Part shown: positions 42,558 to 51,092 of the stretch, piece by piece
Position numbering within the stretch: the stretch's first letter is position 1
How the letters are laid out: each line of letters begins with the position of its first letter
DNA from: Giardia intestinalis
Taxonomy: Eukaryota
Reading direction: 5' to 3' (one strand)
Length of the DNA stretch: 64,000 nucleotides
Assembly (NCBI GenBank): GCA_000002435.2
Contig: CM018792.1
Translations under genes and position numbers: made by a program
Notes under the pieces: generated by a model
The model's database searches: none
What the model was told of the DNA's origin: nothing
Seen by the model: the letters and a program-made list of their open reading frames with translations, nothing else

Positions 42558-45500
42558 TCAGGACAAGTACCTCTTTAATTGCGGACCTGTTGCATACGCG
42601 CTAACTGTTGTGCCATCAAGCTGGACCACATCCTTTTCGTATGGGTACAGGATTTCGTAGCAATCAAGATGATCGCCTTGTGCTGCAGCCATCAATGCGG
42701 TGAATCCTGCGCCGTTTGGATGGCTTGCGTTTGTTCTGAACCCAGACTCGCTGGTGACAAGCAACTTCACGATCTCTGTGCGGCCCAGAGTAGCTGCTTC
42801 CATAAGCGCTGTGACCCCTTGGTTGGTGGTCATGCCGGCCTCATATTCTATAAGTAATTCAACGATGTGGTCGTGTCCGTGACGAGCTGCCGACATAAGT
42901 GCGGTGAATCCTGTTTGTGTTTGAAGTCCTGCCTCGGCTGAGAGTAGCAGCTCGACTATATCCGTATGCCCCTTAAAAGCCGCTAGCATGAGGGCCGTGA
43001 CTCCGCTGACATCCGACATGCCTGCTTCATAACTAGATAAGATTCTAACACACTCTGTATGACCCTGAAACGCTGCGTGCATAGTAGCGGACCACGACTT
43101 GAGATCTTGACGCCCATGCTCGTACTCGGCAAGAAGGGCGACCATAGCATCGTGTCCGCTTGTTGCTGCAAGCATAAGGGCTGTATTCTTTTCTTGGTCC
43201 ACTAAACCCTGCTGAAGCCTCCGCAGACAGTAACATAGAGGCAAGTCGTTGCTGATGGCAGCTATCATCAGCTCTGTCTGCTGGTTGTTGGTACGCCGAT
43301 AGGAGGAAACGTCAGGAGCTTCTACCGGAGCAAGAACTTCGGCTACGTTTATATGGCGATGAAGAAGCGCTAGATGCATTGCTGTGACACCGTCAGTGTT
43401 CCGCTTCAGCCCAGCCTCCCTTGGAATGAGAATTTTAACACATTCCTCGTATCCATAGATAGCTGCAAGCATCAGTGCCGTATTTCCGTGGTTATCTGTG
43501 GCAGTTGCGTAGATGTCCTGTGTTTGCCACACGCCAATCAAATCATTGTTCATTACTGCTATGTGAAGAGGAGTATATCCATTGGCATCATATTTAACAT
43601 CGCGGTCCTCTACCTTGGTCTTTTCAAGCTTCTTTCGAAGAGACGCGTTTCGCATCAGTGTTTGTAGGTTTCGCTGCACAAATAGTTCAGCGCCCTTGAT
43701 GAGATTGTGCTGATCGATAAGACCTAGATGCAGCTCTGCATTGTACTTTTTTAAGGAGGCTTTCTCCCAGATAGAGTCAGATATGAGAGTTGCAATGCCC
43801 AGCCTATTTGCCTTTAAAGCATGCTCCAATAACTCATACCTTATATCAGTCCGGTCTGGATCAAGACGCCGCACAAACTCCCAAATGCTCACTATATCGT
43901 TGTCATCAATGGCTGCATGCCCGAAGCGAATCTGCTTGTCTATATCCCTTGGGTTATACTGTGCACGCACTGCAATTGCCTGTCCATCGGTTTGGGACAG
44001 CTCTGCCGCAACTTCGTAGTGTTGAGATAAGAGTGCAAGCACAAGAGCAGACTGTCCATGTATGTTGCATTGATCAATATTCTTGCTATGCCGAGTCAGT
44101 GATGGCAAACACTCAATCATCCCAGTTTCGGAAACTAACATCAACGGTGTTACATTATTGTGATCTGCTGCAGAGGCCTCGAAGTGGGATAGAGCATCTA
44201 TGACCTCACGATTCCCCCTATCTATGGCTAGCATCAATGCCGTTTTCCCAGCTCCATTTCGAATATGAGCCTCCTTCGGCGCCAGAATAGAAATGAGAGA
44301 CACATTATCCGATAAAACTGCCATGTGAAGACACGTGTTTCCGTGATCATCAACCTGCCCTGCCTCATACTGAACCAGAATCTGACTGGCCCGGAGTAAA
44401 GAGAGAGCGCACGCATTCATCAGCGCCGTCCTATTGTGCGAGTCACGAATACGTGCTTCAACAGCGGCCAAACATGGAATACATGCAAATGACTTAGATG
44501 CAACAGCGATATGAAGAGCTGTGTCTCCATAATTGTTGCGAATACACCCCTCGGTACGTACAAGTATGCTAGCTAGGTTCTCCTTATTGTCCTTCACAGC
44601 ATACATGAGAGCAGTACACCCATGAGAATCAACAAGGCCCGACTCAACAGCTGCAAGCATCTCCACCAGATCCAGTGACCCCAGTTGTACGGCATACATA
44701 AGAGCGGTTCGTCCATCCAGATCCTGAAATCCGGCCTCAATGATCACAAGCTCCTTTGCGGCCCTCAGTGACCCGCTCTGAATGGCAAGCATAAGACTCG
44801 TTTGATTATTGCTAGTAACAGTACGAGCATACTTCATGTTTATTTGGACCTGGTAGAGGTCATCCGAAACAGCGGCATGCATCAGCGGGGTAGCGTCGAA
44901 GTCAAGTTCCACTTGTTGACGTCGGGATAAAGCGTCCACTTCAGCCTTCGTTGCTGAAGATTGTAGAGAGTGTTGTAGCTGTTCCAACGCTTCGTGGGTC
45001 GTTGTAAAACCATTAACAGCATCAGAAATGTGTTTGGCAGTATCTAGGTCACTATGAGAGAGCTTTTCTTCAATGTGTGTAAGGCCAGCACCCGGCTTGT
45101 TGTTGGCGTGACAGGGAATGAAGTTGTCAAGCTTCTGCATTGTACTAATCGGAGACGCAGTCTGACTCGTTCGACTATTACTACCTAAACTGCTACCGGG
45201 GCTTTTCAAGGTTGGAGTGAGGCTGTGAAAGAGAACTTCGTTCTCCCCTTTGTCCTCCATAGCACTCTTGGTCAAGTTCTCATCTCGGCACGCACTGTAA
45301 TGCACAACATAATTTTTACGATTGCTGGGATCCTTTGCTGCATTCATTTTCGGGAATTCATGCCTGTTTTCATCATCTAACTGCTTACCTGGCCGTCCAT
45401 CTGGAGACACAAAGTTACCATCCAATGCCTGTCCATCACGTGTATTCCCTTGTTCTTCCTGTATCTGTAAGTCTGCCGGCTTAGTTAACTCTGTCTGATG

Positions 45501-46316
45501 GATTCCAGGATTTGGTTGCTCAGGTAAAGACAATATCTGCCTGAGAACACGTTGTGGAGACACACCCCTAAGCTGAGGAGAAGAGCATGATGTCCTGTAA
45601 TGACTTGTCACTAGAGTACTAGCGTTCTCTATCTGCTTGTTGGTAAGGAGCCAGTTATCCAACCAAGACGCTATCTGCCTGTAGCCTTCTCGTGCAGCTA
45701 ATCTGGCGCACTCAATAAGATCGCATTTTCCCAAGTTTCCATGCTTCACCAAGAGCTTCACAATCTCAAGGTAGTTCCCCATGATAGCGTATTCAAGGGC
45801 TCCCATGCCATTTGAGTCTCGCTCAGGGCCTAAGAACCCCAGTAGTTCCTTGCAACATTCATAGGAACCTGCTTCTGCAGCTATCATGAGAGCCGTCCTA
45901 CAGTCGGGGAGAATGACCAGTCGCTCCAGAGGGGCAAGAACTTTGCAGCATGCAGTGTTATTTGACTGACATGCATACATCAGAGCAGTGAAGCCTGTAC
46001 GTGTGGTAGCACAGGACTCAGAAATAGCGAGGATCTGGCACATTTCCGCGTCCCCAAGGATAGCTGCCCGCATTAGGCCTGTCATGCCGTCTTCGTCTCT
46101 CCTTCCCCCAAATATTGCTATGCTTGTCTTGACCTGAGCATACTTCCTGCTACAGATCCCGTTAAACCAGTCATGAACACTCGTGAGCATAAGACAAATT
46201 TTTGGGTGAGTGTAATACTCGCGTCTTAAGGATCGATAAACCACGTAGGCTTCTGCATGATGCTTGCTCTCTAAGGCCGACAGGCAATTGTTAATTTTGT
46301 AGAACTGAAGTGACAT
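42558..46316 (-). CDS. Ankyrin-repeat protein, 'Protein 21.1' family (1252 aa)
   Basis: There are more than 20 ankyrin repeats with the characteristic G-TALM-AA--GH--V--LL pattern across most of the length. The ATG at 46314-46316 was verified. Confidence 0.8.
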   Translation of the reverse strand: MSLQFYKINNCLSALESKHHAEAYVVYRSLRREYYTHPKICLMLTSVHDWFNGICSRKYAQVKTSIAIFGGRRDEDGMTGLMRAAILGDAEMCQILAISESCATTRTGFTALMYACQSNNTACCKVLAPLERLVILPDCRTALMIAAEAGSYECCKELLGFLGPERDSNGMGALEYAIMGNYLEIVKLLVKHGNLGKCDLIECARLAAREGYRQIASWLDNWLLTNKQIENASTLVTSHYRTSCSSPQLRGVSPQRVLRQILSLPEQPNPGIHQTELTKPADLQIQEEQGNTRDGQALDGNFVSPDGRPGKQLDDENRHEFPKMNAAKDPSNRKNYVVHYSACRDENLTKSAMEDKGENEVLFHSLTPTLKSPGSSLGSNSRTSQTASPISTMQKLDNFIPCHANNKPGAGLTHIEEKLSHSDLDTAKHISDAVNGFTTTHEALEQLQHSLQSSATKAEVDALSRRQQVELDFDATPLMHAAVSDDLYQVQINMKYARTVTSNNQTSLMLAIQSGSLRAAKELVIIEAGFQDLDGRTALMYAVQLGSLDLVEMLAAVESGLVDSHGCTALMYAVKDNKENLASILVRTEGCIRNNYGDTALHIAVASKSFACIPCLAAVEARIRDSHNRTALMNACALSLLRASQILVQYEAGQVDDHGNTCLHMAVLSDNVSLISILAPKEAHIRNGAGKTALMLAIDRGNREVIDALSHFEASAADHNNVTPLMLVSETGMIECLPSLTRHSKNIDQCNIHGQSALVLALLSQHYEVAAELSQTDGQAIAVRAQYNPRDIDKQIRFGHAAIDDNDIVSIWEFVRRLDPDRTDIRYELLEHALKANRLGIATLISDSIWEKASLKKYNAELHLGLIDQHNLIKGAELFVQRNLQTLMRNASLRKKLEKTKVEDRDVKYDANGYTPLHIAVMNNDLIGVWQTQDIYATATDNHGNTALMLAAIYGYEECVKILIPREAGLKRNTDGVTAMHLALLHRHINVAEVLAPVEAPDVSSYRRTNNQQTELMIAAISNDLPLCYCLRRLQQGLVDQEKNTALMLAATSGHDAMVALLAEYEHGRQDLKSWSATMHAAFQGHTECVRILSSYEAGMSDVSGVTALMLAAFKGHTDIVELLLSAEAGLQTQTGFTALMSAARHGHDHIVELLIEYEAGMTTNQGVTALMEAATLGRTEIVKLLVTSESGFRTNASHPNGAGFTALMAAAQGDHLDCYEILYPYEKDVVQLDGTTVSAYATGPQLKRYLS

Positions 46317-46349
46317 TCCGCGGCCTTTGCGCGGAAGAAACTTTTAAAA

Positions 46350-47324
46350 ATGTCGACGTACACTTCCCTTAATGCGTCCTTCGGCAGCTCTGCGGGGACG
46401 AGGATGACTGCCTTTCCAAACTCAGCAGAGATGATTGAGACGGCGGTTCCCCATGCCACGCAGAGAAGGCTCTCGTCTGGTTCGGGCGCCCTCCACGACT
46501 TCCATGACAAGGTTTTCACGCAGAATATGACCTCTCCATCTAACCTCATAGGCTCTGGTCGCTTCGTTAACTCGAGGGTCGGCGATCCCGCGAGCTATGG
46601 GCTGGCACGCGACTTCTTTTCATTTGATAGCCACAGGCTTCCTGATGTCAAGGTATCTGGTGGTTCTCTCTCCTCGTCTCTTTCCTCCAGTCGAAACGTC
46701 AAGGAGCCGATGCCCCTCATGTCCCAGACGGCTGAAACCCTGGCCATGGTAGGGTCGTGCCATAGCAAACCTATCTACACTGTCTACGACAAGGGGACTT
46801 CGCGTGTCTTCGGTCCGGGCAACGAGACCATGTTTGCCAGAGATAAGATCTTTACAGGGGTGGTTTCATACCCCATGAGGCCGTCTCCGAAGTGGAGCTT
46901 CCGCTCGTCTGACTACCCCACCGATAACAAGGTTATCCCGCCGTTCATCGGCGATGCTGAGACGGGTCGGTACGCACATTCTGGGCGCCTTTCGTCCAGC
47001 GACATCATTAAGCCAAGCGCGTACAAAACTTACGGTACTTCGTCGGAGGCTGTCTATGTGCCCTCTGTTGCACGCTACAACTCGGTCCTCCCAGTTTCGG
47101 TGACCCGTACCACAAGCGCAGGCCTGAGGTCTTCTTCCTCATCCTTCTCAAGCCACGTCGCACCGGTCGCCGCAGCTCTCGATAACCTTGGCGCTAGCTT
47201 CAGCAAGATGGGCAGAGGAAGCTCCATGGGCAGCAGGAGCCTCTCCGTTAGTACTGCGCCGGGTACCATGCGCATCTCAAGGAATTACACGCTTGATTCG
47301 TTAGCAAACGTCTCTGTTTATTGA
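46350..47324 (+). CDS. Ser-rich hypothetical protein, member A of a tandem paralog pair (shared YGLARDFF and VSTAPGT-R motifs)
   Basis: The ATG at 46350 was verified (cttttaaaaATG). It contains RVGDPASYGLARDFFSF and the C-terminal SLSVSTAPGTMRISRNY. AGTAAAC lies at 47337-47343, 13 nt after the stop. Confidence 0.55.
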   Translation: MSTYTSLNASFGSSAGTRMTAFPNSAEMIETAVPHATQRRLSSGSGALHDFHDKVFTQNMTSPSNLIGSGRFVNSRVGDPASYGLARDFFSFDSHRLPDVKVSGGSLSSSLSSSRNVKEPMPLMSQTAETLAMVGSCHSKPIYTVYDKGTSRVFGPGNETMFARDKIFTGVVSYPMRPSPKWSFRSSDYPTDNKVIPPFIGDAETGRYAHSGRLSSSDIIKPSAYKTYGTSSEAVYVPSVARYNSVLPVSVTRTTSAGLRSSSSSFSSHVAPVAAALDNLGASFSKMGRGSSMGSRSLSVSTAPGTMRISRNYTLDSLANVSVY

Positions 47325-47416
47325 TAGTCTTTGCTGAGTAAACAAGGTCTCCTTTGCGCTCGTCGGGGGACGGCTAAAAATTCTGTTCCGCGCACTTTTC
47401 TTAAAAAGAAAATAGG

Positions 47417-48772
47417 ATGGAGGACCTTCCCTTCTCTACGTCTCCTATCAACGCACGGCCAAAGTCTCTCCTCGAATCCGGTCTCGGTGACTCCCTTAGG
47501 GCCAGTGCTGCGGGGAATTCTTTTACGAAGATGGCTCCAGGATCAATGCAGACCTCCGGGATAAACGGTGTCACCTGCGGGAGCACGTTTGACTCAGATG
47601 CCTATGTAGCCAAGGTCAATCATATGAACTACTTACACGCAACAGCACCTTACTCACCACCAGTACGCACCACAGAAAGCAGGATAGGGCAGCCCGAAAC
47701 CTATGGGTTAGCACGTGATTTCTTTAAGCGCAGCATGCCTCGTTCTTATAGCGCCTCCGCAGGACATCTCTCTCGGAAGTATGCGGGGCTTGAACCGGGA
47801 TCTCTGACTGGGCGAGACTTTTTCATAACGAGCAAGGAAATGGCAGAGCAGAGCAAAAAGAGTGACCCGACCAAGTTGCCTGGCGGTGAAAATTTTAAGT
47901 ATGGGTGGAAAATCGGTAGTCCGGCAGGGTGCGGAAGGGGAATTGATATCAGCGCCTACATGACTTCTCCGTCGGCTCTCTTGCGTAGCGAGAGCTATTT
48001 CGATGCACACAGAAGGCTCTGCAGAGAGCCTGAACCAGAGACGTCTCGCCTTTGCAAGTGTGCCGACTGGGAACGCCCTGTGTGCAAAACCTGTGGAAAG
48101 GCCCATGCAAATGGCGCTGTTGGAGGCTGCGAATACGCAAAGGCAGTCTCGGACAGCTACCTAGCAAAGGAAAAGGACTCTGCATATGCGTTCACAGTTA
48201 ATAACGTCGCTGCCACGCAAGGTCACTTGCTTGCCGCCGGCGCACGCCTCCGCGGAGCACAGAATTGCAAGAACAACTGCCCTGTTTGCCGCATGGAGCA
48301 CTATCAGCCCTCGGAGCTCTGCAAGGAGCATATGGCTCACACGGCAGATAGAATCCGAGATTATGAAGTGCGCTCCCTTATGCGCAGCCAAGACTTGGGA
48401 TGCGGCCTCCACCCTGACCGGCTTCCTTGCAAGGTTTGCCATGCACATCATATTATGTTCACGCCACACGACAACCCTCGAAGCCACCAGTTGCCAGGCT
48501 CATGCAGGGTCTGCGGCTCATACCACAGTCCCGAATACATGCTAGACAGGGCCTGTCGCACAGCAGGAATGGATAGTGTTTCCAGGCTTCAGACCCTTGC
48601 TAGCTCCACCGGGGTGCCACGTATGGATGGGAGCACATACAGTATGCCTCATGGGCCCCTCTCTGGGTCGAGAGGCGGCATGATGAATAAGTCTGGTGCC
48701 TTTAATAGCAACATGAGTCTCAGCTTGGGCGTTAGCACAGCACCGGGGACTCGTCGTTTCTCGATAGTATAA
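47417..48772 (+). CDS. Hypothetical protein, member B of the tandem paralog pair; contains a central 4x CxxC putative zinc-binding region
   Basis: It contains RIGQPETYGLARDFFKR, TGRDFFITS, and the C-terminal SLSLGVSTAPGTRRFSIV, which match paralog A. The central part has CKCADWERPVCKTCGK, CPVCRMEHY, CKVCHAHH, and CRVCGSYH. AGTAAAT lies at 48781-48787 just after the stop. Confidence 0.55.
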   Translation: MEDLPFSTSPINARPKSLLESGLGDSLRASAAGNSFTKMAPGSMQTSGINGVTCGSTFDSDAYVAKVNHMNYLHATAPYSPPVRTTESRIGQPETYGLARDFFKRSMPRSYSASAGHLSRKYAGLEPGSLTGRDFFITSKEMAEQSKKSDPTKLPGGENFKYGWKIGSPAGCGRGIDISAYMTSPSALLRSESYFDAHRRLCREPEPETSRLCKCADWERPVCKTCGKAHANGAVGGCEYAKAVSDSYLAKEKDSAYAFTVNNVAATQGHLLAAGARLRGAQNCKNNCPVCRMEHYQPSELCKEHMAHTADRIRDYEVRSLMRSQDLGCGLHPDRLPCKVCHAHHIMFTPHDNPRSHQLPGSCRVCGSYHSPEYMLDRACRTAGMDSVSRLQTLASSTGVPRMDGSTYSMPHGPLSGSRGGMMNKSGAFNSNMSLSLGVSTAPGTRRFSIV

Positions 48773-48796
48773 GTTACCAAAGTAAATGATATACTA

Positions 48797-49186
48797 TCAG
48801 TTTCTGATTGGATCGTCTGCGTCCTCCTCAGGGAGCCGCATGCGCGGTATGCCTTCAGTAATTGGAAAGACTAGTCCGCAGCTATTGCAAGTAATAGAAC
48901 CCTCAAGTATTATAAACCCGTAAAGCGTATATGCGAGGACAGTTAGAAATTCCTGGTTTGAGTCATAGTCGTCTGGTAAATCGGGAGGCAGACCTTCAAC
49001 TGCATGTCCAACCATGCCATAGAGCATAGGATAGTCCATTCTGCTGGCTAACTTGCGAACTATATCGATGTTATACTCCGGGGCGTCGTCTTCCGCCTGC
49101 TCAGTGACGTCGACAGTGAAGCCGGCGTTGGCAGTGCAGCACGATTTCCTGGGGCAGGTGAGCGTAGAAAGAAGGAAAAGATGCAT
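48797..49186 (-). CDS. TRM112-like multifunctional methyltransferase activator subunit
   Basis: The 129-aa protein has an N-terminus MHLFLLSTLTCPRKSC...GFTVDV and a C-terminus EGSITCNSCGLVFPITEGIPRMRLPEED. These match the TRM112 zinc-ribbon-like N-terminus and the conserved EG-L-CP--G--FPI--GIPNMLL motif. The ATG at 49184-49186 was verified. Confidence 0.7.
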   Translation of the reverse strand: MHLFLLSTLTCPRKSCCTANAGFTVDVTEQAEDDAPEYNIDIVRKLASRMDYPMLYGMVGHAVEGLPPDLPDDYDSNQEFLTVLAYTLYGFIILEGSITCNSCGLVFPITEGIPRMRLPEEDADDPIRN

Positions 49187-49238
49187 TTATACGATGCAGC
49201 GACAGAAATTAAATAATTGCTCAAGTTTTGAGCAAGAA
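49187..49238. promoter_or_regulatory. 52-bp AT-rich bidirectional promoter/initiator region between divergent TRM112 and poly(A) polymerase genes
   Basis: The sequence ttatacgatgcagcgacagaaattaaataattgctcaagttttgagcaagaa lies between the two divergent ATGs. Giardia promoters are short AT-rich elements immediately upstream of the start. Confidence 0.5.
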
Positions 49239-51092
49239 ATGACGAGTCACCTAGGAGGTCAGAGTCCCCTTATTGACGCAGAAGTTCCCCTCCAACCCCT
49301 TCCAGAAGGACACAAGCTTAATAAGGAGCAATTCCAACTCGTAGATAACCTTCTGCTCAGCTATTTGAAAAATTGCAAGCTATATGTCTCCTCAGAGGAA
49401 ACACGGAAAAAAGAAGCCATTCTTAGGAACCTGGAGCTTATAATTTCAGACTGGGTGTATGAAACGTACAAAGACGCATTCTTGGCCAACATGCAATTCT
49501 ATCGAAAGCAACCTAACATGCCTCGCTCAGAGCGTCTGGTGAGGTTGTATCCCTTTGGGTCATACTATCTTGGCATTAATGAACCATCATCAGATGTGGA
49601 CACAGTCGTTATCTTTCCACAATATGTCCGAATAGCAGACTTCTTTGATAAGTTCCCGACCATCATAGGACAGATGCCACAGGTGTCCTACTTTGATTGC
49701 ATTCGAGACGCAAAGGTGCCGCTCATCACCTTAACGTATGACTCCGTTGATTTCGACCTGAGCGCGGCCGTCATGGCAGTCAACCGCGTGACCGATGCCA
49801 TACCCTTTCTTGATCCAGAATGCACGGCCAATATGCACGAAAAGTCCATTTTGTCGCTCAATGGGTATCGCACAAACATCCATGTGAAGTCTCAGTTCGC
49901 TGGGAACAATATATTCTATAGCACATTCCAAAATGCTGTACGTGCTCTTCGTCTCTGGTGCAAGCGGAAGAACATCTACAGTAATCGCTGTGGTTTTTTC
50001 GGCGGCATCAATTGCATAATATTAGTGGCAAACGTAATGTTGCGGAGCTCGTTTGAGCTTCTGCAATTGGATGTAGAACAACAAAACTTGGAATATCAAG
50101 CTTCTTTATCCACTGCACAAGGCGATCTCACCAGTCCCAGTGACCCGCAATCACCGTACATTCAATACAACAGTGACTCTATTCTGGAGTTACGAGAAGC
50201 TGTCCCTCTTACCTTGTGGCTGTACAATATATATTATTATTACTCTCGACTAGATTGGAGCACAAAGGCCATTCAGCTACCAAATCCTGTACAGGCATCA
50301 GCAGCTACCAGACTATCCATGACAGCTCAGAGCTGGGTGCGGCGAGACAAGGACAAGATGTGCCTTCTCACCGCAGTGGAACCATATTTTAATAGCACGG
50401 ACAAAATATTTGAAACAACTTTCGACACCATCCTGACAAACTTCCGGCAGGGGGTCAAAGCTATATTGGACATAGTTAGAGGAGTAGTGGCAGCATATTC
50501 ATTTGGACTTGAAATTGCACGGCCCCTTTTGCGGCCATCTCTTTGGGACACATTCTTCTATAACAGCTTTTTAGAGTTTTTCTCCAATCCGGGCTATAGA
50601 CCAAATATTATGTATCTGCTAATAACGCGGAATACGATGTCATCAAACAGCATGGTGGAATTAGACAAAGTGAAGAGCTTTCTAGAATCTCGGATAAATC
50701 GGATATGTCGTCGTCTTTTAACGAGCCTTCAGCCTGCAGTGGGAAATAATGCTAGGCTCATTCGCGTTCATCCTCTTCCGACGTGGTATGATAGCACAAG
50801 CCTTGGTGAGTTAGAGCATGGAAAGCACTACTTCTACATAGGAATGGAGACGTCTACCACTGGAGACCTTAGGGGTCTATCTGAGCGCCTCTCGCAGGAG
50901 GTAAGGGACTTTGCAAGAGAATGCAAGGGATATCTTTCTGAAAAGAGAATGCTACTGGGCATGGAATCGATTGATAAGATGCTCCAGATTAGAATCACAA
51001 CCTACAAAGACCTTCCAGAGGCACTCCGAGGCCTCTCGCCGCCAGAACAAGCCAAAACCTTGTATTGTACGAGCGGTCAGCAGATCGAGTGA
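49239..51092 (+). CDS. Poly(A) polymerase (nucleotidyltransferase catalytic + central domain)
   Basis: The catalytic motif is YPFGSYYLGINEPSSDVDTVVIFP (compare [22 protein letters not shown]). The third Asp region is KVPLITLTYDSVDFDLSAA. RALRLWCKRKNIYSNRCGFFGGINCIILVANV matches PAP [28 protein letters not shown]. The track start at 49053 is TTG and would overlap TRM112. Homology to the PAP N-terminus starts at about MTSHLGGQSP (ATG 49239). An alternative ATG is at 49194. Confidence 0.85.
   Translation: MTSHLGGQSPLIDAEVPLQPLPEGHKLNKEQFQLVDNLLLSYLKNCKLYVSSEETRKKEAILRNLELIISDWVYETYKDAFLANMQFYRKQPNMPRSERLVRLYPFGSYYLGINEPSSDVDTVVIFPQYVRIADFFDKFPTIIGQMPQVSYFDCIRDAKVPLITLTYDSVDFDLSAAVMAVNRVTDAIPFLDPECTANMHEKSILSLNGYRTNIHVKSQFAGNNIFYSTFQNAVRALRLWCKRKNIYSNRCGFFGGINCIILVANVMLRSSFELLQLDVEQQNLEYQASLSTAQGDLTSPSDPQSPYIQYNSDSILELREAVPLTLWLYNIYYYYSRLDWSTKAIQLPNPVQASAATRLSMTAQSWVRRDKDKMCLLTAVEPYFNSTDKIFETTFDTILTNFRQGVKAILDIVRGVVAAYSFGLEIARPLLRPSLWDTFFYNSFLEFFSNPGYRPNIMYLLITRNTMSSNSMVELDKVKSFLESRINRICRRLLTSLQPAVGNNARLIRVHPLPTWYDSTSLGELEHGKHYFYIGMETSTTGDLRGLSERLSQEVRDFARECKGYLSEKRMLLGMESIDKMLQIRITTYKDLPEALRGLSPPEQAKTLYCTSGQQIE

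Follow-up and report, generated by a model that had tools for sequence, protein, structure and literature searches.

Two short conserved motifs are shared by the Giardia ventral-disc protein DAAP1 and its downstream neighbor GL50803_4852

Within a 64-kb stretch of the Giardia duodenalis WB genome (the window, in what follows), two adjacent open reading frames (ORFs) on the same strand, here called A and B, encode proteins that resemble each other in two short motifs. ORF A is identical, residue for residue, to the published ventral-disc protein DAAP1 (exact look-up; name from PMC8986099), and ORF B corresponds to GL50803_4852; in the WB annotation each is a "hypothetical protein." The similarity between them is real, yet confined to these two motifs, which are the most conserved islands of DAAP1. 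Moreover, the gene pair is found in the same order in Giardia muris, and protein B carries a Cys/His-rich cluster. We lean slightly toward the view that A and B are old tandem duplicates encoding largely non-globular, Giardia-specific cytoskeletal proteins that attach through two common docking peptides, B having in addition a metal-binding module.

Motif 1 is an N-proximal block of about 20 residues, R-x3-S-x-[VI]-G-x-P-x-[ST]-YGLA-x-DFF, in which the octapeptide YGLARDFF is exact in both proteins (residues 83–90 of A and 96–103 of B). Motif 2 has the form VSTAPGT-x-R-[IF]-S, and its STAPGT core lies near both C termini (residues 301–306 and 440–445, respectively). The first-pass annotation of this DNA had described the two ORFs, their coordinates and strand, and the shared YGLARDFF and STAPGT blocks, all of it accurately; neither peptide recurs when the rest of the window is translated in all six frames. 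A BLASTP comparison of the two proteins, with compositional adjustment on, aligned motif 1 with 13/20 identities (E 3e-6) and a segment containing motif 2 with 16/30 identities (E 0.003). The Smith-Waterman score of the pair (z = 6.4) was reached by none of 500 composition-preserving shuffles. Comparing the alignments of A and B orthologues with hhalign recovered motif 1 over 20–23 columns (E 6e-7, probability 92%) and, more weakly, motif 2 (E 0.005), with no further matches. By these values, the resemblance goes beyond chance. The two motifs are collinear and occupy similar relative positions in the two proteins. At the nucleotide level, the copies agree at 20/24 positions in the octapeptide core and at 38/69 over motif 1, with differences at synonymous sites, which argues that the motifs are maintained at the amino acid level. 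We rejected the idea that the octapeptide stems from recent gene conversion because of these synonymous-site differences and because the motif is older than the split from G. muris.

Could two Ser-rich, low-complexity ORFs have produced this similarity by chance or through their composition? Ser makes up 19% of A and 12% of B (Gly and Pro are merely moderately high), and the rest of the two proteins shows no similarity. An artefact is nevertheless hardly credible, given an exact octapeptide within the 13/20 identical block, the BLASTP and shuffling statistics above, the occurrence of motif 1 in both G. muris genes, and a ratio of nonsynonymous to synonymous substitution rates (dN/dS) of about 0.05 in both ORFs. 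Other short elements fared differently. The recurring xRDFF/xRDKIF, SPxWSF, and FGPG variants listed in the first-pass annotation do not form a supported internal repeat, the best off-diagonal self-alignment of A or B being no better than those of shuffled sequences, and most of them have no conserved counterpart in G. muris.

Orthologues of A and B in other G. duodenalis lineages are 82–94% identical to the WB proteins (82–86% for B in other assemblages). No relatives beyond Giardia were present among the database matches: word-indexed searches gave G. duodenalis proteins only, and searching exhaustively in HMMER with the B profile brought in the G. muris orthologue GMRT_12235 (376 amino acids, E 6e-8); two further matches of the HMMER search were rejected as low-complexity false positives. 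A motif-only search yielded 11 word-sharing candidates that carry no score, a result that does not bear on the existence of further family members. The G. muris orthologue of DAAP1 is GMRT_12236 (334 amino acids), and overall identity between the two species is 38% for A and 30% for B. In G. muris, an ankyrin-repeat gene on the minus strand is followed by GMRT_12236 and GMRT_12235 on the plus strand, as their counterparts are arranged in G. duodenalis, and the order ankyrin (-), A, B, Trm112 (-), poly(A) polymerase is also kept in two further G. duodenalis lineages. The pair is thus conserved both among the assemblages and in G. muris. Of the description of A and B as lineage-specific tandem paralogs, the tandem arrangement, the restriction to Giardia, and the reality of the motifs hold, whereas the remainder of the proteins cannot be aligned; full-length homology was not found (hhalign global mode, probability 0.7%). 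The term "paralogs," if it is to be used, would draw on the motifs together with adjacency and collinearity.

The conservation of the motifs stands out against this divergence. Motif 1 is present in both G. muris proteins, as VGHPETYGLAGDFFSFD in the A orthologue and IGRPDTYGLAPDFF in the B orthologue, and BLASTP between the two G. muris proteins gives an independent match on it (E 1e-4). Motif 2 is kept perfectly in G. muris A, SVSTAPGTMRIS. In a sliding-window count between G. duodenalis and G. muris, residues 299–310 of A are invariant at 12/12 positions and residues 82–93 at 10/12; in B, the top conserved island across the genus is residues 95–106 (8/12 invariant). Among the G. duodenalis assemblages, STAPGTRRFS of B is invariant and its flanks are nearly so. 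The Arg of YGLA-R-DFF is variable, being replaced by Ser, Gly, or Pro in orthologues. Between assemblages, dN/dS is 0.05–0.06 for A and 0.037 for B, similar to the neighboring Trm112 gene, with dS near saturation in this comparison. A and B are real genes under strong purifying selection.

The orthologues of B also differ in architecture. G. muris B (locus L001, 10001–11131) is 75 residues shorter than its G. duodenalis counterpart and lacks Cys/His units 3 and 4 and the C-terminal STAPGT; it has an insertion of about 30 residues after a PGG-x-F-x-YGW island and a STAP tetrapeptide near its N terminus (GVSSSTAPTF). One assemblage-B-like orthologue of B from an ENA assembly (P0004, 436 amino acids) lacks 15 residues between units 1 and 2, SYLAKEKDSAYAFTV in WB (columns 247–261 of the B orthologue alignment A1). 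This linker seems to be dispensable, or the gene to be mis-called in that assembly.

The 18 Cys residues of B are all invariant among assemblages. Its CxxC pairs begin at residues 223, 288, 338, and 363; all four have the form CxxCxxxH and are followed by a further Cys or His 5–9 residues on, and four CxxCxxxH occurrences were seen in none of 20,000 shuffles of B. Units 1 and 2 are shared with G. muris. In unit 1, C223, C226, and C238 are invariant in that species as well, and the His is shifted there by one position; in unit 2, all candidate ligands (C288, C291, H295, and C302) are invariant, the G. muris unit reading CPHCHVTHYKPSEEC. Units 3 and 4 occur throughout the G. duodenalis assemblages; G. 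muris lacks both. The first-pass proposal of a putative zinc module made of four CxxC pairs is right about the four pairs, whose occurrence is non-random, but just half of the module is conserved within the genus. Pfam searches with B or with the excised Cys-rich segments gave nothing significant, the best matches being DZR_2 (E 0.14) and Fer4_13 (E 0.39). Self-alignment of B did not detect the units as duplicates of one another. The simplest reading is that each unit would bind one zinc ion.

DAAP1 itself has been characterized experimentally. It is a stably bound protein of the ventral disc, most abundant in the overlap zone and the ventral groove, which co-immunoprecipitates with Giardia actin (GlActin) and is required for seal formation and attachment; fluorescence recovery after photobleaching showed no recovery over 12 min, and its loading in unattached cells is GlActin-dependent (PMC8986099, PMC8552679). 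The DAAP1 phenotype is mild, with an "intact disc." The advice in the first-pass annotation to look at the disc was therefore apt, protein A being a published disc protein (PMC8986099). DAAP1 had previously been described as lacking domains and homologues. The published work reports it in G. muris and its absence from Spironucleus, and mentions no paralogue; in the literature searched, the papers that later cite DAAP1 are reviews. The published CRISPR interference guide targets bp 392–411 of DAAP1, about 675 bp from the start of B, and is unlikely to affect gene B.

For B, the published record is proteomic. The protein appears as a "hypothetical, Giardia-specific" candidate of the peripheral-vesicle fraction, not localized (PMC3986054); it is tabled as putative mitosomal, with GMRT_12235 as orthologue and Martincova et al. 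2015 (in vivo enzymatic tagging) as the cited source (PMC7985675); and a GlActin pull-down whose list also includes DAAP1 recovered it in a single replicate out of three, with 3/12/2 spectral hits (PMC8552679). With three proteomic data sets, B is made as a protein. Several "Giardia-specific hypothetical" peripheral-vesicle candidates of 2014 (PMC3986054), Gl13774, Gl24451, Gl10524, and Gl4852, recur in the GlActin interactor lists of 2021 (PMC8552679). The fraction enriched in peripheral vesicles may carry cortical cytoskeleton.

Taking these observations together, we propose the following scenario. A single ancestral gene would have undergone tandem duplication before G. duodenalis and G. 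muris separated, and the copies would then have diverged beyond recognition except for two collinear, functionally constrained peptides. These may act as docking peptides that attach the largely non-globular A and B to a common partner. Because of DAAP1 biology, this partner would most likely be cytoskeletal, either the microtubule/microribbon lattice of the disc or an actin-containing complex. In DAAP1, the motifs would be the obvious candidate contacts for stable loading onto the disc or for a link to the actin-containing complex. B, in which motif 1 persists in the two species and motif 2 in G. duodenalis, would have gained its Cys/His metal module; the units, two in G. muris and four in G. 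duodenalis, most likely each bind a metal, probably zinc, forming a small folded interaction module that is missing in DAAP1.

The search for domains and the structural models bear on this scenario. Pfam hmmscan at E<=10 found no family for whole A, whole B, or ten excised motif segments, and a search of Protein Data Bank sequences with both family profiles gave one chance match for A (E = 1) and none for B. AlphaFold2 models built on the orthologue alignments have a mean predicted local distance difference test score (pLDDT) of 28.0 for A, almost all of it coil, and 27.9 for B. Low pLDDT, a Ser content of 19% in A, and the lack of a domain are consistent with A and B being largely non-globular. 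Since dN/dS is uniformly low, much of the chain in both proteins may be held by constrained contacts, as would be expected for proteins that lie along a cytoskeletal lattice.

Several points weigh against the scenario. With both motifs masked, the similarity of A and B falls to chance level against shuffles (local z = -0.13, semi-global/global z = 0.46), so that the common ancestry of the whole genes is a conclusion drawn from the motifs and their setting rather than a demonstrated fact, and motif 2 is not recognizable at the C terminus of G. muris B. The very low dN/dS over the entire length of both proteins is unusual for a merely disordered linker, and suggests more structure or contacts than two docking peptides would require; the low AlphaFold2 confidence possibly reflects just the four-sequence alignments used. 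The literature searched holds no localization of B, whose appearances in proteomic lists are mutually inconsistent and could be contamination. Finally, the spacing C-x2-C-x3-H-x5-9-[C/H] fits no curated zinc-finger family.

The most serious competing explanation accepts shared ancestry and supposes divergent function: DAAP1 would work at the disc, B at or near mitosomes or peripheral vesicles, with its CxxC/His cluster serving iron-sulfur or redox chemistry instead of holding structural zinc, and the motifs would be relics or would bind some generic factor. Giardia mitosomes are devoted to iron-sulfur cluster assembly, which counts in its favor, as do the CP[VH]C start of unit 2, reminiscent of thiol-oxidoreductase active sites, and the single Cys of DAAP1, which has nothing comparable to the cluster of B. 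The listings of B among putative mitosomal proteins (PMC7985675) and peripheral-vesicle candidates (PMC3986054) point the same way. However, no thioredoxin-fold or ferredoxin family was matched, Fer4_13 and DZR_2 staying at the E values given above; the constraint on the motifs exceeds that on the remainder of B and so speaks against their being simple relics; and B was also recovered in one GlActin pull-down replicate. We regard divergent function as unlikely, while still giving it some weight.

Another origin of the motifs can also be considered. They resemble the C-terminal half of the calponin-like (CLIK, PF00402) actin-binding repeat (…GMTAPGTRRHIYD, …GMSVYGLGRQVYD), and could in principle be degenerate repeats of this family through which DAAP1 and B bind actin filaments directly. 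DAAP1 was indeed found to be actin filament-associated and co-precipitates with GlActin (PMC8986099, PMC8552679), and YGLARDFF may be compared with YGLGRQVY, and STAPGTRR with MTAPGTRR of calponin-2. We built a profile hidden Markov model (HMM) from 10 repeats of calponin-1, -2, and -3 and transgelin, whose sequences were verified as PF00402. It aligned only TAPGTRR or TAPGTMRI (7–8 residues) in B, A, and G. muris A, at 0.3–4.9 bits and empirical P values of 0.002–0.04, the PF00402 gathering score of 21.1 bits not being reached; with hhalign, motif 2 matched the repeat at P 0.0011 (probability 21%) and motif 1 at P 0.23 (probability 0.3%). The nominal P values from the HMM and, for motif 2, from hhalign speak for a relationship. 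Against it, the scores are far below the gathering threshold and Pfam is silent even on excised segments, LQMGxNKxASQ, which forms the N-terminal half of the repeat, has no counterpart, motif 1 is not significant, and the Arg of YGLA-R-DFF is not conserved. Moreover, the family was picked post hoc among thousands, so that a nominal P near 1e-3 carries no significance. Since the 25-residue repeat HMM was not matched at 21.1 bits, we rejected calponin-family membership of A and B; a direct actin-binding role of this kind is very improbable, and we keep it as a faint lead only.

Still less probable is the interpretation put forward in the first-pass annotation, that A and B are axonemal proteins with sperm-tail SHIPPO (STPGR) repeats. 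The resemblance is visual: RPSPKWSFRS of A is similar in appearance to the terminal "APAYSF" of an STPGR unit, and GPG and APG tripeptides occur in isolation. The Pfam HMMER scan proposed there was run and gave no match to SHIPPO-rpt (PF07004) at E<=10. HMMER filters can hide weak matches, and so we also modeled the six repeats of human ODF3, verified as PF07004 (73.5 bits), as an HMM and searched with all filters off. A scored -0.9 bits, equalled or beaten by 548 of 1000 shuffles, and B was not reported; neither approaches the PF07004 gathering score of 20 bits. PGPG or PGPGxY and tandem units of about 33 residues do not occur in A or B, and there is no enrichment of PG dipeptides, of which A has 2 (1.5 expected) and B has 5 (2.6 expected). 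The SPKWSF element of A is not conserved, the G. muris sequence being PTWTAR. Furthermore, DAAP1 is located on the disc and not on axonemes (PMC8986099, PMC8552679). We give the axonemal interpretation almost no credence.

The positions of the two genes, their motifs, and their neighbors are collected in Table 1. The spacer between A and B is 92 bp, with an A-rich stretch, cttaaaaagaaaatagg, immediately 5' of the ATG of B. Both genes have an A/T-rich stretch directly 5' of the ATG and an AGTAAA hexamer just past the stop codon, which we take to be the Giardia-type polyadenylation signal; the combination presumably represents the typical look of independent Giardia transcription units. The A-rich stretch before the ATG of B, together with the hexamer after A, suggests that A and B may be transcribed as two separate units. 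On the other side of DAAP1, the ankyrin-repeat gene is divergently oriented and starts only 33 bp from the DAAP1 ATG. The Trm112p-like gene downstream of B has the same position in other G. duodenalis lineages and is missing from the locus in G. muris; there, the gene after B is phospholipase-B-like. Genes A and B are overlapped by several ORFs of 92–132 amino acids, antisense or in a different frame (46271–46549, 47708–48106, and 48161–48487, minus strand; 48186–48545, plus strand); because dN/dS is about 0.05 in the frames of A and B, we consider them most likely non-coding by-products of the 53–54% G+C of this stretch.

Table 1. Coordinates in the window of genes A and B, their sequence elements, and flanking genes
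Feature	Position	Strand	Details
Ankyrin-repeat protein, "Protein 21.1" type	42558-46316	-	1252 amino acids; upstream of A
Gene A (ORF A), DAAP1	46350-47324	+	324 amino acids; GL50803_16844 (GL50803_0016844), XP_001704909.1 by exact-sequence look-up
N-terminal GTR element of A, SLNASFGSSAGTRMTAF	46365-46415	+	residues 6-22; GTR[MI]TAF conserved in G. muris
Motif 1 in A, RFVNSRVGDPASYGLARDFFSFD	46560-46628	+	residues 71-93
Motif 2 in A, SLSVSTAPGTMRIS	47238-47279	+	residues 297-310
AGTAAA after A	47337-47342	+	13 nt past stop codon of A
Gene B (ORF B)	47417-48772	+	451 amino acids, 18 Cys; GL50803_4852, XP_001704911.1 by exact-sequence look-up
Motif 1 in B, RTTESRIGQPETYGLARDFF	47666-47725	+	residues 84-103
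Cys/His unit 1, CKTCGKAHANGAVGGC, then EYA	48083-48130	+	residues 223-238
Cys/His unit 2, CPVCRMEHYQPSELC	48278-48322	+	residues 288-302; C-x2-C-x3-H-x6-C
Cys/His unit 3, CKVCHAHHIMFTPH	48428-48469	+	residues 338-351, ends in His (H351)
Cys/His unit 4, CRVCGSYHSPEYMLDRAC	48503-48556	+	residues 363-380; C-x2-C-x3-H-x9-C
Motif 2 in B, SLSLGVSTAPGTRRFS	48719-48763	+	residues 435-449
AGTAAA after B	48781-48786	+	9 nt past stop codon of B; polyadenylation-signal-like
Trm112p-like protein	48797-49186	-	129 amino acids; PF03966, E 2e-7; immediately downstream of B
Poly(A) polymerase	49053-51092	+	PAP_NTPase + PAP_central; downstream flank

Gene models disagree on the start of DAAP1, giving 324 amino acids in WB and P15, 306 in many assemblies (start MTAFPNS), and 348 in one lineage. 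The 348-residue extension is blocked in WB by in-frame stop codons. Other assemblages conserve, in frame, the 18 residues 5' of the 306-residue start, MS[TV]YTSLN.S.GSSAGTR (window 46296–46415; loci L002 2899–3048 and L003 2866–3015). Because of this conservation, and because GTR[MI]TAF is kept in G. muris, the ATG at 46350 is the best-supported start, in preference to the 306-residue models. The GTR element loosely echoes the C-terminal STAPGT-x-R motif; global hhalign did align it with the C-terminal motif of B, not significantly (E 0.042, probability 0.7%).

The locus itself was known, both genes being annotated and one of them published. What we add is that DAAP1 has a motif-sharing neighbor conserved across the genus, which we did not find described in the literature searched, and that the two motifs are the most constrained parts of DAAP1. 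This protein is among the few of the ventral disc with a demonstrated role in attachment, and there was no earlier structure-function handle on it; the motifs, which vary little or not at all between G. duodenalis and G. muris, provide precise targets for mutagenesis or peptide experiments. GL50803_4852 in turn becomes a candidate for a partner of DAAP1, or for a relative that is in part redundant with it, and the two would make up a proposed DAAP1-like Giardia family of two members. A proposal more modest than the calponin reading is that the motifs represent a new Giardia-specific cytoskeletal docking peptide and that B is an unrecognized second protein associated with disc and actin ("DAAP2"), whose CCH[C/H] metal module would be novel; we advance it tentatively and consider it rather doubtful at present. 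One of the DAAP1 papers states that Giardia lacks all canonical actin-binding proteins (PMC8552679). Should the calponin lead prove true against our strong expectation, DAAP1 and GL50803_4852 would be the first Giardia proteins with a recognizable relative of a canonical actin-binding module. The axonemal STPGR idea, which would have had wider appeal, is unsupported by the results. The value of the findings is thus mainly for specialists of the Giardia cytoskeleton; they overturn nothing, are not surprising, and carry no general significance.

Among known systems, SHIPPO-rpt/STPGR proteins such as human ODF3 likewise contain Ser, Pro, and Gly and are non-globular and cytoskeleton-associated, but A and B differ from them in showing neither HMM signal, PGPGxY core, periodic repeat, nor PG enrichment, and in the disc location of DAAP1. 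The calponin repeat of calponins, transgelin, and UNC-87 is, like the motifs described here, a short peptide, one that binds actin filaments, and TAPGTRR of B is identical to the corresponding stretch of repeat 2 of calponin-2, verified as PF00402; however, the alignment with A and B spans 7–8 residues at <=4.9 bits, with the N-terminal half absent and motif 1 not significant. The Cys/His units of B resemble the CCHC zinc knuckle (PF00098, C-x2-C-x4-H-x4-C) and other small Cys2-His-Cys modules in being short, tandem, and of the form C-x2-C...H...C, whereas their spacing is x3/x5-9 rather than x4/x4, unit 3 ends in His, and Pfam gives no match. The closest comparison is with DAAP1 itself. B is 127 residues longer, has 18 Cys against one and two to four CxxCxxxH units, and is otherwise unalignable, yet the two most conserved motifs of DAAP1 recur in it, their order unchanged and their relative positions similar.

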